This document shows, one piece after another, positions 585-12,220 of a stretch of 64,000 nt of DNA. A model generated the notes under the pieces. That model ran no database searches and was not told the DNA's origin. It was given only the letters and a program-made list of their open reading frames with translations. Made by a program: the position numbers and the translations under genes. The stretch lies in the NCBI RefSeq assembly GCF_902652985.1, contig NC_047023.1, forward strand, positions 5,518,001 through 5,582,000, given 5' to 3'. Each line of letters starts with the position of its first letter. Within the stretch, counting starts at the first letter, position 1. Source of the DNA: Pecten maximus (taxonomy: Eukaryota).

Positions 585-3500
585 GTAAGGTGGTTTGATT
601 TTGACATTGAGAATACAAGGCGTTATACGATACGACACCGGTCATTAGTCCACTTCAGACTCGTTGCCAAGCTTGGGGCTTTTCCTTTTGGACATGAAAT
701 TACATGTACGTGCAACTTGTGAGCATACTTTGTTTTACAATTTTAGTCTCCCATCGTATGTTTATATTTTGAATGCTTAAATGTGTTTCCTTTTCATTTA
801 TGTCGTATGACATCATTCACAGCTGCAACAGGACACATGCAATTTGTATCATCGATATTTATAGCATGTAGTTGATGTACCTGGTACAGTAGACTTGTAC
901 AAGCCCCAGACTGAATTTTGGCTGGCTGGCATAAATAGACTTTTTTTTTTTTGTTAAGAATTGCTCATCTAAATTATAATACTAGCTTGAAACTCTAGAA
1001 TCAGACATGTCTTAGAGACCGATATCATAAAGGCCAATCTTGTAATTTTATTAGTTTAGAGACACTGAGACAGGGTCATACTAGAAAGAATATCCATACC
1101 CTGTCTACACTTCTCTCCAGCAGACAACACACTACCATCTGTCTGAAATTGTCCATCGTCCTGATCTATCGCAGCTAACCTTAGGGTCATGGCATCATAT
1201 GGACCATCAGCTGCCAATCTTAAATCAATTATTTGACATGATTTCACAAATTGAATGAATGGATCATAGGCCTATTAGACTGACTAAGTTTGAATTTAGG
1301 AAGTACAAATTCAACCAATAATAAACCATAAAAATAAAATCAACTGTGATGGCAGTGAATAGAATACTGATGGACAATAACTGTCAATTACTGAATAAAA
1401 AAATATGGAAAATCATTTAAATGACAACTTAAAAAAAAAATCATGTGAATCCTAAATAACAGATATTGAAGATCTTTGAGTTCACAAAAAACCATGATCA
1501 CGAAGATTCCACATCTGCTTTTTTTCAGAATGAATGTTAAAAACTTTATTCTATTTTTTCAATGACTTGTACCACAGACACACAGAATGCTATAAATGTA
1601 ATTAGTTACTTATCCTTTGTTATGTATAATGGTAATTACTGGTCTGGGAACTGTGGTAAGGGCGATAACTCCCAACTTGCAGTTTGGAGGTTTGTTGAAC
1701 TCTTTTGTGTTTAGAGGAAAAGAAATAGAGAGAAGGCGATTGTTGAGAGAAAACGAAACACGTGTTACGAGTGTTTTTTTTGATTTTTAAAAGATAATAT
1801 TGAGCTAATTCCCCGGACAAACACTACATGGTGGAGAATTCGAATTGAAAAGAAGGTTTGTGAGTTTTAGCGCGATATGTGACGGATTGTTATGAGTAAG
1901 TGTGTTTTATTTAGCGATTCTCGATTTGCTGGTGCTCATTTGGACGAGTTAACATTGCGAGTATCAAGGGGGTCAACACTTCGAGACCACATAGGTTTAC
2001 TTAGGAACTTCGACCACACCAATTATAAGCTCTATATATTTTGTGTTGGTATCAATGACATCCCTGATGATATAGCTAACTATATTGACCAATGTAAAAC
2101 TAATCTATATGAAAGTCTTGTTTCTACAATTTTGAACATCGAACAACACGTTCAAAATAAAATTCCATCGGCTTTAATACTTTTCGGCACCGTTCCACCA
2201 AAAGATATCAGACGTACAGTTGCCAAATATCCTTCTAAATCACGCTTGACTCTTGCTGAAGTATGTCCAAGATATCAGCAACACTTTGAGGACTTTTTAA
2301 TGGGGCTGAATGACTTCATATCAAATTTCAATACCGCACACACTGGAGTACATTTAGGCCTTCACACTGACCTTCGGATCCATATATCACGTGGCCGCAT
2401 ATCTAGGTTTTCATACTTTAAATTGCATGATGGCCTACATCCACGACAAAGTTTACTTTCTGTGTGGCAGCGCAAAGTTTTGTTTGTATATCATGAACTT
2501 GTCCAATAAAAACTGCTGATTTTGAGTCGAAAGCCCACCGGCCGACTATATCAACGTACAAACTCTACTTGTCTTTTCATTTGCATATTTACTGACCTTA
2601 GTCACATGGTTTTGTTGTTGAAAGCCCACCGGCCGACACAAAATTGTGATATATATGAATTTGTATAGTATACTCAGGCCTACAGTTTGTGTGTGTATAT
2701 AATTGTATGACAAATATTATAAAAGTCACATGTTTTGTTGAAAGCCCACCGGCCGACATACATGTGTGTGTTTCATTGGCTGCATATTATTAATTGCATT
2801 TATTGTCTCGAAATTAACCTGCAGAGTGAAAACTTTCAAATTTTGTTTGATATAAATGTGTTCACTATTTTAAATCTTGAAAGCCTACCGGCCAACATCT
2901 GTGAACTATTCTTCCAAGGATGAAAAACAGAGGTGAAATTTGTAAAATAACTGGTCACATGTCATGAATAGCCTTACACCTCCATTAATTTACAATGTGG
3001 AAAATGAATATGATAGTGATTCGGACATTCTTGATGACAATTTTTTAAAAACAAATCAACTTTTTGAGGACTCATTCAAATTTGAAAATGATAGTTCTTC
3101 ATGTTCCATTATAATATAATGGTAATTACTGGTCTGGGAACTGTGGTAAGGGCGATAACTCCCAACTTGCAGTTTGGAGGTTTGTTGAACTCTTTTGTGT
3201 TTAGAGGAAAAGAAATAGAGAGAAGGCGATTGTTGAGAGAAAACGAAACACGTGTTACGAGTGTTTTTTTTGATTTTTAAAAGATAATATTGAGCTAATT
3301 CCCCGGACAAACACTACACCTTATATTGACCCAAACATCTGCCTATAATAGGAATCCGAGAGTAAGTTGTCAATGATATTGACAGTAGATTGTTAAAAAA
3401 TTGTCTTTCATGTATCAAGATTGCCAAAACTATGATGTGTGTTGATAGTATAGTGATCATGATCATGTTATCATATCATGCTGGATAATTCATTTATAAA

Positions 3501-6500
3501 CCTATGTTCATGGTAAAAGTAGACTAGAGTATAAGGTCATCATACTATAGCTCAAGCTACAAATGTAGCGAGAGTTTTCCTTCAGCTTTCTGTTTTGCGT
3601 CCATAAACAATTTACATTTTCGGCTTCTTCACAGCAACCTCTGAACCAATTTAAATAGAACTTAACAAAAACTTTTCATGGCCAAAAATTTAACAAAATT
3701 GTAAAATCATGACCCTGGAATCTCACGTTTGCTCCTTGGGAGGGAATAAACTTGATATCGTTTATAAATTAGGGAAATCACATTTTTGACTATCATTTTT
3801 ATTTCTGTTGGAATTTCTAATTCTAAATTGGTTTGAATTAGCAGGTTTTGTGGTATATGTTATATTGCCCCTGACTGACACACATGGGGCTGATGGGTGG
3901 GGCTAACAATTACCCTAACAAGGACATGGAGGAATTAAATGTGCAATATTTAGGGTCAATTTAGCTAATTTAATTCTCCTGTAAGATGAATTGCAGGAAG
4001 TTTTCCAAATTTTCTGTATCAACAATTAAAATGGAACTACATACAAATGTTATATCAATATCCCCTTTTACCAACTGGTGAAAGCTACAAGACCCAGAGC
4101 CTCACTTAATTTTTTTTTTTTTCAAACTAGGATATCTTACTATACACATTTCTGTTGGGTATGCAGAAAGTGTTGGTTTAATATTGATCAGGACAGTTAT
4201 TTTACATATATATATAATAATATATATATATATGCTATATAATGTTTTTGTGTGTCATTGTTGTACTTTGTCTTAGCTATTGTAGGTTGAGTCATGACAT
4301 ACAAATTACATTATCATTTTTTTTTTTTACAGATTAACAAAGGAAAAGTTTTCATATGAAAAAGAGGCTATAATGCTAGAAAAAAAAGTAGAGAAGATGG
4401 CAGCTGATGGGAAGGATGAATATGATATCAGGAAACAGGTACATTGATACAAGGTCCACCTTAGTGATATGAAGTATTTATTTAGCTATAAAACAATTTT
4501 TAGAACTTCTGACCCAAAGATGACAAAGTGCTGTTATTTTTCAGCCTCGTAAAATTTTGAACTATTCATTAACTTATCTATTAACAGCCACGACGGCCAT
4601 TTTGTAACATGATTGTGAAATCATGGTTTTCTTGAACAACACCTATTTTTTAAAGTTATATTAAGGATAGAAAATTGAAAGATTTTAATTTTAGAATGTG
4701 ACCATTTTGTACTGATTTTGAGTAATTTCTAAAAATTTCGTGAAGAAATATGTTTTTTTTTCTCTCTCGCGATGCATTCTGTTAGGTATGTGTACCTTTC
4801 TGGCAACAGCTATGGAGGTGACATCTTTAAAAATTAATAGTTTTCTAGATATATATATATGTACATGTATATGGTAAAATCCTCTCAGTACATAGGTTTT
4901 ATTATGATTTTAGCCCTATATTTAACAAAGTACATAGTTTTTATTATGATTTTAGCCCTATATTTAACAAAGTACATAGTTTTTATTATGATTTTAGCCC
5001 TTATATTTAACAAAGTACATAGTTTTTATTATGATTTTCGCCCTATATTTAACAAAGTACATACTTTTTATTATGATTTTAGCCCTATATTTAACAAAGT
5101 ACATACTTTTTATTATGATTTTAGCCCTATATTTAACAGAGTACATAGTTTTTATTATGATTTTAGCCCTATACTTAACAGAGTACATACTTTTTATTAT
5201 GATTTTAGCCCTTTATTTAACAGAGTACATAGTTTTTATTATGATTTTAGCCCTTTATTTAACACAGAGTACATAGTTTTTATTATGATTTTAGCCATAT
5301 ATTTAACAGAGTACATAGTTTTTATTATGATTTTAGCCCTATATTTAACAGAGTACATAGTTTTTATTATGATTTTAGCCCTATATTTTACAGAGTACAT
5401 AGTTTTTATTATGATTTTAGCCCTATATTTAACAGAGTACATAGTTTTTATTATGATTTTAGCCCTATATTTAACAGAGTACATAGTTTTTATTATGATT
5501 TTAGCCCTTTATTTAACAGAGTACATAGTTTTTATTATGATTTTAGCCCTTTATTTAACACAGAGTACATACTTTTTATTATGATTTTAGCCCTATATTT
5601 AACAAAGTACATAGTTTTTATTATGATTTTAGCCCTATATTTAACAGAGTACATAGTTTTTATTATGATTTTAGCCCTATATTTAACAGAGTACATAGTT
5701 TTTATTATGATTTTAGCCCTATATTTTACAGAGTACATAGTTTTTATTATGATTTTAGCCCTATATTTAACAGAGTACATAGTTTTTATTATGATTTTAG
5801 CCCTTTATTTAACAGAGTACATGGTTTTTATTATGATTTTAGCCCTTTATTTAACAGAGTACATAGTTTTTATTATGATTTTAGCCCTATATTTAACAGA
5901 GTACATAGTTTTTATTATGATTTTAGCCCTTTATTTAACAGTTCTTAGCTTACCTGGATACATGAGTTACAACTGCTATCATATGTATAATTGTGTAACA
6001 ACATCTTGCTTGGTTTTTCAATGAAGAAAAACTGCACTTTCTAGAAAGGACTATATTGTCAAAATGTCTTTACTTACAGAAGGAAGTTTTGGAAGAAAGC
6101 CAGAAAATGGTTCCAGATACACAGAGGAGATTGAAAAAGGGTTTAGAAGATTTAGAATCCTACATGGTAACTATATGACAGGATATGATAGAAAATATAG
6201 GATTTAAGTAATTAATGAAAATTTGAATTTCTGATAAACTACTCCTATATATCACAGCTGTATATTCATCACAAAGTGGTCAGTGAAGTGTTATCTAGTT
6301 GGTGTAGGGGTGGCATGGGGTATACTGGAATCAAGTTGTCTGTCCATCTGTCTGTCTGTAGACACAACAATATACATACTACATATGTACATACTCTTCC
6401 AAAACTATTGAGGGAATTTCAATGAAGCTTGCTGGCAATATTCCTTATACATTTTGTTTCCCTTCAATAACTTCAGTAATTTTTAACAGATTAGTTTAGA

Positions 6501-8282: not shown

Positions 8283-8515
8283 ACAAACAGTGTGAGGAAG
8301 CGGGTCGAACCAACAACTCCTCTGTAATAGACTCACATTCTCTGTTTAAATAGATTTTCATATATAATTCATGGTTTGATTGCATTGGGTGGGATATGGA
8401 CCAGAAATGACTAAGACTGCCATACATAGGTATCAGGTATTTAAATTAACTATACAATAACGTACAAGGCAAAATGATAGATCTAGGATATTCATTTGTG
8501 CATTGAGGCAGATTC

Positions 8516-9366
8516 CAGCCTAGTTATGTATCAGAGGGCTGTAACATCAGTACAGCCTAGTTATGTATCGGAGGGCTGTAACATCTGTACAGCCTAGTTA
8601 TGTATCGGAGGGCTGTAACATCTGTACAGCCTAGTTATGTATCGGACGACTGTAACATCTGTACAGCCTAGTTATGTGTCGGAGGGTTGTAACATCTGTA
8701 CAGCCTAGTTATGTATCGGACGGCTGTAACATCTGTACAGCCTAGTTATGTATCAGAGGGCTGTAACATCTGTACAGCCTAGTTATGTATCGGAGGGTTA
8801 TTACATCTGTACAGCCTAGTTATGTATCGGACGGCTGTAACATCTGTACAGCCTAGTTATGTATCGGACGGCTGTAACATCTGTACAGCCTAGTTATGTA
8901 TCGGACGACTGTAACATCTGTACAGCCTAGTTATGTATCGGAGGGTTGTAACATCTGTACAGCCTAGTTATGTATCGGACGGCTGTAACATCTGTACAGC
9001 CTAGTTATGTATCAGAGGGCTGTAACATCTGTACAACCTAGTTATGTATCGGAGGGTTGTAACATCTGTACAGCCTAGTTATGTATCGGAGGGTTGTAAC
9101 ATCTGTACAGCCTTGTTATGTATCGGAGGGTACAGCCTAGTTATGTATCGGACGGCTGTAACATCTGTACAGCCTAGTTATGTATTGGAGGGCTGTAACA
9201 TCTGTACAGCCTAGTTATGTATCGGAGGGCTGTAACATCTGTACAGCCTAGTTATGTATCGGAGGGCTGTAACATCTGTACAGCCTAGTTATGTATCGGA
9301 GGGCTGTAACATCTGTACAGCCTAGTTATGTATCGGAGGGTACAGCCTAGTTATGTATCGGAGGGC
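8516..9366. repeat. Minisatellite, 37-bp unit, ~23 copies, just 3' of the TBCA stop
   Basis: Unit CAGCCTAGTTATGTATCGGAGGGCTGTAACATCTGTA. Confidence 0.95.
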
Positions 9367-10059
9367 TTAGTTGAACTTGATTCATATACAATGTACCTGG
9401 AAGTGAGACAAAGTAATAATCATGAGCCTTACATTATCATAGTTAATAATTGTACATCATTCAGATTTCATTTTAATCGTTATAATATGATGTTATTTGC
9501 CAATATCTTGTTGTAGAAGTTGTATTGAATGTGGTGCAGAATTTCCATCATTTTTATAACTTAATGTCTCCTGATCAATTATTTTCCTTTGTCTTGAATC
9601 ACATAATTATTTGAATGCCAGAAGGCTTATCCATTTGTTAGGTGTAAAAGTCAACATTTTGTATTCTTTATTTAAATTAATTGGTAACAAATGGGTTGAA
9701 ATAGTTTCTTTCATTATCGTTTTATATCTAAACTCAGCATGGTTGTGATAGACATTGATATCATGCTATTTTGTATCATTAAGCTGAGAGAACACAATCT
9801 TTGTCATAGCATCATGTTTGTACTGTGAACGGATTGCTTTTAATTTGAAATTATTTAGTTACACATTCAATGTTATACACAATTGAAGATTCCATTAAAA
9901 TGTGCCTGTAATTTCTGATTGTAGAGTCTTTCGTACGACAGTGGTTGGCATTTCATTGTCGTATCCGTGATCTGTCTATAGTACATATCCAGTGCCATCA
10001 TTGTTCAACAAAGGGTTGAGATATCCTTGTTCGCGGAACAGACCCATGATTGATTGTTT

Positions 10060-10472
10060 TTCTCACATACTTGCAACCAAACGCAAGTTTTTATGAAAGT
10101 TTTTCATCGCGCCATCTTCAAATGGTCCTTGGAATGTGCGTCAAAATTTATGACGTCATCATTTACGACTTTGTTACTCAACGTTAAATGATGACGTTAC
10201 GTTATTGTGAGCAGCGTCATATAGCGCGTGCCGACTGTCTTTACGCACCCTGTGTAAGATCGATTTATCTTTTCCCTAGCAACCGCCGGATAACCCTGTG
10301 AAGTATGTGAGAATAGTTAAATCTTTCACTCCCTTGGGGGTGAGACACGGGAATCTCAACCCGAGGGGAAGATTCTTAAGTTGCCAAACACAAGACTTGC
10401 CGAGTGTTTGGCAGCTTAATTATCTTACCCCCGAGGGTTGAGATCCCCCTGTCTCACTTCCATGGGGGTGAA
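10060..10472. mobile_element. Inverted-repeat element(s), probably non-autonomous DNA transposon
   Basis: 13-bp IR TTCTCACATACTT (10060-10072) / AAGTATGTGAGAA (10301-10313), then a ~150-bp imperfect palindrome at 10325-10472. Confidence 0.55.
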
Positions 10473-11213
10473 TGATTATTTTCCTCTTACCCTGTTTACC
10501 TTCTTATGCATCTAATATTGACGTTACATCAATGCAAGGAAATTTTGACGTGACGTGATTTAATTGTCGACGTAACGTCATTGTACTGTTGCCGTGACGT
10601 CATGGTATTGTCATCTTCGCTAGCCAAGGCTTCTGATTACGTTACACTACACGAACCCTTGGCGGATATAGTCGTGTTCAAACCGCCGCGCCCTGGAATC
10701 CCAGGGCACCCAATCAAATCGCGTTTTACGTTCAGGCTTGGTTTCGCAGTAAACAAAAATTGCGGCACCCAGTACAGAGCTACAATGTCGACTATGTCAT
10801 GGCATTTTACCTATATACAGAGACGAACTATTTATAGGGAAACATTCGCAGTGTTTGATCAATCTATTTAAGTCATTGATCACATATCTCATCAAAATGA
10901 CACAAGCCTCCATGTGTGTTTGTAAACATGCATGCGATATTCTTATTGTGTCAAGTTTGGAGACGTCAGAGTGTAGTACTGCGATGGACGAAGGATTTCC
11001 GGATAGTTTTTTTTAAGGTGCTGGGAAACAGCAACCTTAAGAGGTCATCGCCAAATTTCGCTAGAACAGATTAATTCGGAACTCTCGGGGGAATCAAAAT
11101 GGGGCTTATTTCAATGATAAATCCCGATAAGTTCAGATGAAACGCTGACAACACACTAAACAATCTTGTCTACTTTCGCGAAGTATTTGTTAGCCTATAT
11201 TGGTTAAGTAATA

Positions 11214-11337
11214 TGATTCAACCTTTTATATGTTTGAATACATTTGTTGAATTTAAATAAATTATAGAAGGATTTTTTCCCTTCTTTGATTTATTTAAAT
11301 TCATCAAATGTATTCAAACATATAAATGGTTGAATCA
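11214..11337. repeat. 124-bp near-perfect palindrome (MITE-like hairpin)
   Basis: Arm TGATTCAACC...AGAAGG is the reverse complement of CCTTCT...GGTTGAATCA, with a short spacer. Confidence 0.8.
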
Positions 11338-12220
11338 AACAGCTTAAATCGTACAAGATGACCTGTTTTATCCCCGAGTAATGACGCTTGCTTACTGGTT
11401 TGTATGAGGGGAGGTAACTCGAATACACTCTAGTTAATGCGACAATGGAAAGTCGCCTTGGGCTCTATCTTGGGTTGCTAAAAATGGCCCGGCCTCGCCT
11501 ACAGTCGAATACTGTTTTTAGTTTCGAATTTTCCAATTGGAAATCGATAAGTAAAATCTCCGATTGCTTTTACATTCGATACTTAAAATGAAAGTAGAAT
11601 ACTTCCGATTACAATGTATAGTTCATCCTTTCCGAGTAAAAGGCCAAACAAAAATCGCAAAGTATACAACATGAACGTGCGATTCAACAAGTCACCGGAA
11701 CAGATAATGTAGGCCTTTTCATCGTGAACAAATTATACTTCCCAGAAGAGTTTCTTCTAACGAAAGTTGTCACGTTCTAATAAGGATACAGATCAGTTAT
11801 TACACGAAGAGAAAAGGGCAGTAAATGGAGTGCAATTTAAAAACCTAGGAAAGTAAACCGTGGGAGAGTAATTCACAGGAATCATATATAGAGAATCGCA
11901 AAAAACATGACCGACATCATACATTAATCGATCTAAGAATTAAACTTAGTCATAGTATGCCAATTCAGGTTAGGTTTAAAAACGTAATTCTTCGCTGTTC
12001 ATCACAACTATAACACAACCACGGCCTTTTAAAAGTAAATAAATTCCTGAGAATGACATAGGATAATCATCAGTAAAACAATCAGGAATGCACTTAAAAA
12101 AACAATAAAAACGTCTTATTATAACATGCCATTTTATATTCATATACATGTAATAGTTTTGTTTCTGTATTTCAATCCCCCATGCACAGCACATTTGAGT
12201 CGCCTCGACACTTTGATTTT

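Follow-up and report, generated by a model that had tools for sequence, protein, structure and literature searches.

A bulged 23-nt hairpin, repeated in a group of Ty3/gypsy retrotransposons, is a real and selected RNA structure. Its copies probably serve as multivalent docking sites for a protein on the genomic RNA of the element, a putative function. Four copies lie in the window (the whole stretch of DNA that was analysed, 64,000 nucleotides), within a deletion derivative of an 8.5-kb parent element with the order LTR, SGNH esterase ORF0, hairpins, gag, pol, LTR.

Hairpins in the window

The motif GAAAGCCYACCGGC was found in four copies in the window, all on the forward strand and starting at 2529, 2620, 2740 and 2879. 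The spacing of 91, 120 and 139 nt and the copies themselves agree with an earlier note on this DNA, and no occurrence was obtained in 100 shuffles. Each copy can fold into a lower stem, an AAA bulge and a GCC/GGC mini-stem with a 4-nt loop. Hairpin 1 (2525–2547; lower stem AGTCG/CGACT, AAA bulge, GCC-CACC-GGC) is located 15 nt 3' of the ORF0 stop. Hairpins 2 (2601–2650, core 2616–2638) and 3 (2727–2766, core 2736–2758) were delimited by motif match and folding; the former has a long outer stem and the latter the outer stem CACATGT/ACATGTG. Hairpin 4 (2875–2897) is weak, with a predicted apical stem only. Folding z-scores of copies 1 to 4 were -3.15, -3.06, -2.20 and -0.09, respectively. When the whole intergenic region was folded, copies 1 to 3 formed at a probability of at least 0.96, and the apical and lower stems of copy 4 at 0.50 and 0.04. 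Folded alone, copies 1 and 4 were better in antisense than in sense. The differing lower stems and the series C-G, U.G, U.G and U-A at one stem position were as the earlier note had written them. The spacers, described there as largely unique, are not entirely so, as copies 2 and 3 have a 39-nt stretch in common (87%).

Searches of Rfam yielded no family that matches the hairpins. For window positions 1600–3400, three weak snoRNA matches were obtained (E at least 1.5), none of them over the hairpins, and for loci L044 and L081 nothing was returned at E ≤ 0.5. Among the curated models in Rfam (SECIS, hammerhead, IRE, histone stem-loop and others) none was matched. A SECIS element and a hammerhead, suggested by the AAA bulge and GAAA, were rejected on this ground and by eye, as the respective quartet or core is absent.

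The parent element and its window copy

In the genome, 12 further copies match most of the first 1500 bases of the element, and those fetched were mostly 8.5-kb Ty3/gypsy elements. Pfam searches on three of them (L032, L044, L034) identified gag followed by pol in the order PR-RT-RH-IN. The elements have TG...CA LTRs, a tRNA primer site, a purine tract and short target site duplications (TSDs), which are 4 bp around full-length copies too. In these, the gag frame spans 453 codons and matches Retrotrans_gag and a CCHC knuckle.

The window copy lies on the forward strand between two TSD copies, CCTT at 1614–1617 and the same four bases at 3319–3322. Its 5' LTR (1618–1828, 211 bp, TG...CA) has no mismatch to the 3' LTR over 204 bases. 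The primer-binding site (1829–1839) complements the 3' end of host tRNA-Ala(AGC) genes, with 11 matching bases here and 14 in copy L031. It is followed by ORF0 (1892–2509), identified as an SGNH/GDSL hydrolase of 205 aa by alignment and structure model. About 49 codons of gag are left (2964–3111), which in full-length copies continue as the 453-codon frame. At the junction (3109–3114, TTA microhomology) approximately 6.8 kb are deleted, comprising gag, pol, the 3' UTR and the purine tract, the last of which is kept in full-length copies. By LTR comparison, the 3' LTR (3115–3318) lacks its first 7 bases. A short upstream ORF (2920–2967) ends in a TGA that overlaps the gag ATG (ATGA); similar overlaps were seen by eye in two of the families described below (F2, F6).

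A search of the genome gave a single occurrence of the deletion junction, which was also present in contigs of runs X1 and X3. An amplified gag-less parasite (TRIM/LARD-like) was rejected, given this single-copy junction and the missing purine tract and first 7 LTR bases. Likewise, the proposal that a gag-less RNA hijacks helper particles does not hold, since the parent is a gag-pol element. The array had been assigned to a 3' UTR, which it resembles here because the copy lost about 6.8 kb. It is placed between the SGNH ORF and gag in full-length relatives and in 6 of 6 families, and the 3' UTRs of representatives are without a core match. Given the size of the loss, the single junction and the full-length layout, the array is therefore the spacer that precedes gag in a gag-pol element. 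The copy in the window, a single deletion derivative, is a dead intronic fragment.

The enclosing gene is TBCA (tubulin cofactor A). Its first two exons are at 532–584 and 4333–4438, and the element is in sense orientation in intron 1 between them (585–4332, forward strand). Positions 4334–4438 match Pfam TBCA, and a GT..AG splice joint skipping 3748 bases was seen in 4 of 4 runs. Low-depth run contigs cover parts of the element; as it lies in the TBCA intron and the flanking intron is covered as well, this coverage is uninformative on transcription of the element, and the run data gave no expression specific to it. Elsewhere, the window contains minisatellites at 4842–6069 and 8405–9465 (42 and 37 bases, respectively), pieces of an abundant repeat with many contig matches in RNA-type runs (3592–3800 and 4523–4554), and long inverted repeats at 10320–10477 and 11204–11347 (nested 49/30-base arms; 68-base arms).

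Conservation in six families

Searching the genome with ORF0 gave 72 matches, and the loci fetched represent five families (F1–F5) with ORF0 proteins 37–62% identical to that of the window. A degraded sixth family (F6) was found through a motif-pattern match. A 21-base pattern had 116 matches in the genome vs 0 for a control pattern, and the 100 of them listed have ORF0 matches as neighbours, as judged by eye. Among 100 pattern matches listed separately, 12 were isolated, and one of the latter led to F6. All six families carry 3–8 copies of the 23-nt hairpin between ORF0 and gag. Identity between families is 87% over the 23-nt core vs 32% over the 20 bases on each side (24 hairpins, 234 pairs). 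The earlier note had named a decayed tandem repeat with equally conserved spacers as the contrary case; for the core, this reading is therefore refuted. The arrays do expand by duplication, as seen from 43–47-nt units in the F2 array and the common flanks of window copies 2 and 3.

Four F2 copies (L046, L048, L049, L050) have one 1591-base pol deletion in common, ending directly before the second pol hairpin, and kept ORF0 and the array; they are an amplified non-autonomous subfamily. A second short derivative, from F5 (L100, G000:C3922), has ORF0, two hairpins and both LTRs, along with small pieces of gag and pol.

A word-based protein search of other species found no ORF0 homolog. A profile search with ORF0 retrieved 163 proteins at E ≤ 0.001, 11 of which had E ≤ 1e-30. 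Viral contigs gave neither a protein nor a motif-pattern match. Scanning metagenomes with the pattern gave four loci (L101–L104). L101 and L103 closely copy F2 and F3, hence they are not independent; L102 and L104 are single motif matches on GC-rich contigs with no gag or pol.

Covariation and strand

For covariation analysis, 21 selected hairpins were aligned (20 from spacers and 1 from pol). Near-duplicate or degenerate copies were left out (F2 copies 4–6, F4 copies 2 and 5, F6 copy 4). Pairs were formed in 92.1% of cells vs 86.7% after shuffling (0/500) and 45% or less in slid controls, and covariation was 0.210 vs 0.103 (0/500); these shuffle counts are not probabilities, because the copies are related and kin sequences can beat such shuffles. 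Changes on both sides were found in 4 of 9 pairs (14/500 shuffles). All covariation resides in the lower stem, in which 4 of 6 pairs are altered on both sides. The apical pairs do not vary except for one mismatch and, being invariant, give no covariation support. Hairpin copy 3 of F6 has the lower stem TATTG/CAATA in three copies.

The variable pair was counted at 40 loci as C-G 63, U.G 55, U-A 38, G-C 2, U-C 1 and C-A 1, so that it can form in 158 of 160 cases. The excess of U.G (55) over C.A (1), drawn from few independent lineages, favours the sense strand. In the outer flanks, own partners gave better pairing than those of others (p 0.002 at n 21 and p 0.02 at n 16); the test is about equally strong for the antisense strand. 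Core matches were in sense orientation in 30 cases and in antisense in none. Together, the six families with unrelated flanks, the lower-stem covariation and the predominance of U.G over C.A bear out the earlier proposal of a multi-copy structure under selection at the RNA level.

Copies within pol

Eight variant copies were located in pol, in all five families with long pol frames (1, 2, 2, 1 and 2 in F1 to F5, respectively). None of this type was found in three degraded F6 stretches. They are spread over three or more regions and two reading frames, and have other lower stems (e.g. ACTGG/CCAGT) and mostly one-base bulges. The mini-stem was part of the best fold in 7 of 8 and was lacking in one. 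In four pol frames, 6 of 11 P-[T/P]-G tripeptides are written with the codons of the motif; for the P-T-G form, about 0.012 would be expected from codon usage. Of these 8, model R1 recovered only 2, including one that was a member of its training set; therefore, the pol copies are looser relatives of the spacer form.

ORF0 and its association with the array

The window ORF0 (205 aa) has a pI of 9.1 and an Arg-rich loop before block V; across the families, pI is 9.1–9.7 and a basic loop is conserved. Pfam PF00657 matched the window protein at E 0.004, below cut-off. S10, G27, N55, D180 and H183 are present in at least 90% of 21 aligned sequences, and the structure model (pLDDT 95) has a fold matching GDSL/SGNH structures. 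By alignment and model, ORF0 is classed as an SGNH/GDSL hydrolase that has kept the S-G-N-D-H catalytic set, with putative activity.

An RT search retrieved sister elements at 59–64% identity that have the same primer site. ORF0 was found inside the element in 0 of 18 sister stretches, and the hairpin core had no match in 128,713 bases from 13 sister stretches. A GCC-N4-GGC mini-hairpin recurs in 5 of 5 ORF0 elements, and none of the 10 sister elements tested had a mini-hairpin recurring three times. In the RT tree, one branch separates the ORF0 families from the sisters (91/99; root unsure). As ORF0 and the hairpins share this single branch, their association amounts to one event.

A distant gypsy lineage (L094; G000:C8:402700-412600, minus strand) also has an SGNH ORF before gag, together with a PNMA-like gag and a different primer site, so that SGNH-first gypsy elements are present in two lineages of the genome. 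L094 has no hairpin array, though its SGNH ORF0 has a pI of 9.3; a pyrimidine tract plus AG is located directly 3' of the SGNH ORF stop. Two further loci (L092, L093) have distant SGNH-like ORFs with no nearby gag or pol. Both contain a similar GC-rich stretch with inverted repeats, approximately 250–500 bases 3' of the ORF and with no convincing Rfam match.

Probable docking of a protein on the genomic RNA

A bulge, mini-stem and loop that stay fixed on a free stem, together with the variable copy number and the occurrence in both spacer and coding regions, suggest repeated docking. A copy number of 3 to 8 fits additive binding. Protein docking is supported by the layout, the conservation in six families, the lower-stem covariation, the pol copies and the absence from sisters without ORF0. 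The hairpins would fold in vivo on the sense RNA, and the fixed A bulge, the GCC/GGC mini-stem and the C-rich loop would be read by one protein. Several bound copies would label the RNA for transport or for assembly into particles. Bound hairpins may also tune the translation of ORF0 vs gag.

The leading candidate partner is ORF0, as it is basic and was gained together with the array, and as RNA binding is reported for the SGNH-like OSK domain of Oskar (PMC5785220). The assignment itself is tentative. Of the two partners named in the earlier note, Gag and the SGNH protein, the latter is somewhat favoured by the comparison with sister elements. ORF0 keeps its catalytic residues, unlike OSK, which counts against an RNA binder. 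So does the esterase of the ZfL2-1 retrotransposon, for which binding of phospholipids and not of oligo(A) RNA is reported (PMC3905857). A link of the hairpins to SGNH is further weakened by the single evolutionary event and by L094, which has SGNH without hairpins. Other possible partners are Gag, with its CCHC knuckle match, which is an unlikely one, and a host protein, slightly less likely still. A bolder version, which is speculative and a little less probable than ORF0 as the partner, is that capture of an SGNH esterase gave a gypsy clade an RNA-binding trans-factor of its own. Such a factor would read a cognate array of bulged hairpins in the manner of Rev or Tat and tie the RNA to membranes or assembly sites.

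Alternatively, the array could have come with ORF0 as a device for translation or splicing, a rather unlikely function, in which it would provide internal entry or reinitiation to gag or mark unspliced RNA. Its position speaks for the translational variant: the array is present only where ORF0 precedes gag, the first hairpin follows the ORF0 stop by 12–15 nt in F1, F3 and F5, the bulge of the first F4 hairpin is the ORF0 stop codon, and a degenerate F4 copy adjoins the gag ATG. However, copies in pol cannot serve gag initiation, and in L094 gag stands behind an SGNH ORF with no array. As to splicing, donor-like GT sites 3' of the primer site and acceptor-like AG in the array were noted by eye, but donor-like sites are found in sister leaders as well. 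Moreover, the low-depth run contigs contained no splice joint inside the element, and of 11 internal deletions listed among 34 copies, in a survey in which some match chains start inside the array, none had GT..AG ends.

That the motif acts as DNA is improbable. In one form of this reading, the motif would be a repeated site at which a host factor for transcription or insulation binds, as in the leaders of gypsy, ZAM, Tirant and accord in Drosophila. Over the apical 10 bases the sequence is fixed and palindromic, and the GCC-N4-GGC palindrome looks like an AP-2 site. Leader repeats that bind a protein as DNA are also known (TERM/RpL22; PMC8872304). Against a DNA site stand lower-stem changes on both sides (three F6 copies with TATTG/CAATA, and ACTGG/CCAGT in pol), the one-sided bulge, the ratio of U.G to C.A (55 vs 1) and the strictly sense orientation (30 to 0). 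Even less probable is a role of the hairpin as single-stranded DNA in reverse transcription, as a pause or strand-transfer aid. Under DNA parameters, several copies retain a fold on the sense strand, but sense folding as DNA is mostly weaker or no better, and sisters with the same primer site and 59–64% identical RT replicate without the hairpin. A neutral tandem-repeat remnant is hardly credible at all. The 43–47-nt units of F2 and the common flanks of window copies 2 and 3 are in its favour, whereas the core at 87% and flanks at a background of 32%, between families with 37–62% identical ORF0, and the separate copies in pol are not. The repeat reading holds for how copies multiply and is refuted for the core.

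Comparison with known systems

For protein docking on RNA, the MS2 operator, HIV TAR and dispersed viral packaging signals provide models that combine a short stem, a purine bulge, a mini-stem and a fixed loop. In hairpins of this type, sequence is fixed at the bulge and loop and free in the lower stem, as here. The scallop hairpin differs from them in sequence, has no Rfam match, and has an enzyme fold as candidate partner. A repeated 5'-UTR motif that was tested as a DNA site is known from the Su(Hw) array of Drosophila gypsy. TERM of ZAM, Tirant and accord is likewise a short motif repeated 5' of gag and common to related families (PMC8872304). Unlike TERM, which was tested as a DNA site, the scallop motif shows the covariation of a bulged hairpin, and on one strand.

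The cis packaging sequences of Ty1 and Ty3 are similar in being structured RNA near the 5' end that is read by an element protein (PMC4974528). These signals are described as 'not clearly defined', with several sites expected to be scattered outside the main region (PMC4974528). The present case differs in that one 23-nt unit is used in 3–8 copies, with further copies in pol, and only in families bearing ORF0. How LTR retrotransposons select their own RNA is, by the same account, poorly defined (PMC4974528), and the role of captured esterases in retroelements is regarded as an unsolved question (PMC5408684). A 23-nt unit with natural variants, a candidate partner of 205 aa and sisters without both would allow a direct binding test for both questions.

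Among captured enzymes, the GDSL/SGNH ORF3 of bdelloid Vesta is similar in being a hydrolase with intact catalytic residues in an LTR retrotransposon (PMC5408684). Here, unlike in Vesta, SGNH is the first ORF and directly follows the primer site. The main text of PMC5408684 contains neither the word hairpin nor the word stem-loop. ORF1p of ZfL2-1 is an active SGNH esterase encoded first on a retroelement RNA, as is ORF0 with its putative activity, and a function in the assembly of RNPs and in membrane targeting was proposed for it (PMC3905857). It differs in belonging to a non-LTR element, in its coiled coil and in its phospholipid binding, and the abstract contains no hairpin array (PMC3905857). 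In the literature searched, nothing was found on a gypsy clade of molluscs in which an SGNH ORF precedes gag, or on the hairpin, and Repbase and supplements may hold such families; PMC6238403 makes no mention of an esterase, hydrolase, PBS or additional ORF. An enzyme-plus-operator module in LTR retrotransposons was likewise not described in the literature searched. Particular to this element are the conservation of the hairpin in six families, its copies in pol and its tie to a captured enzyme.
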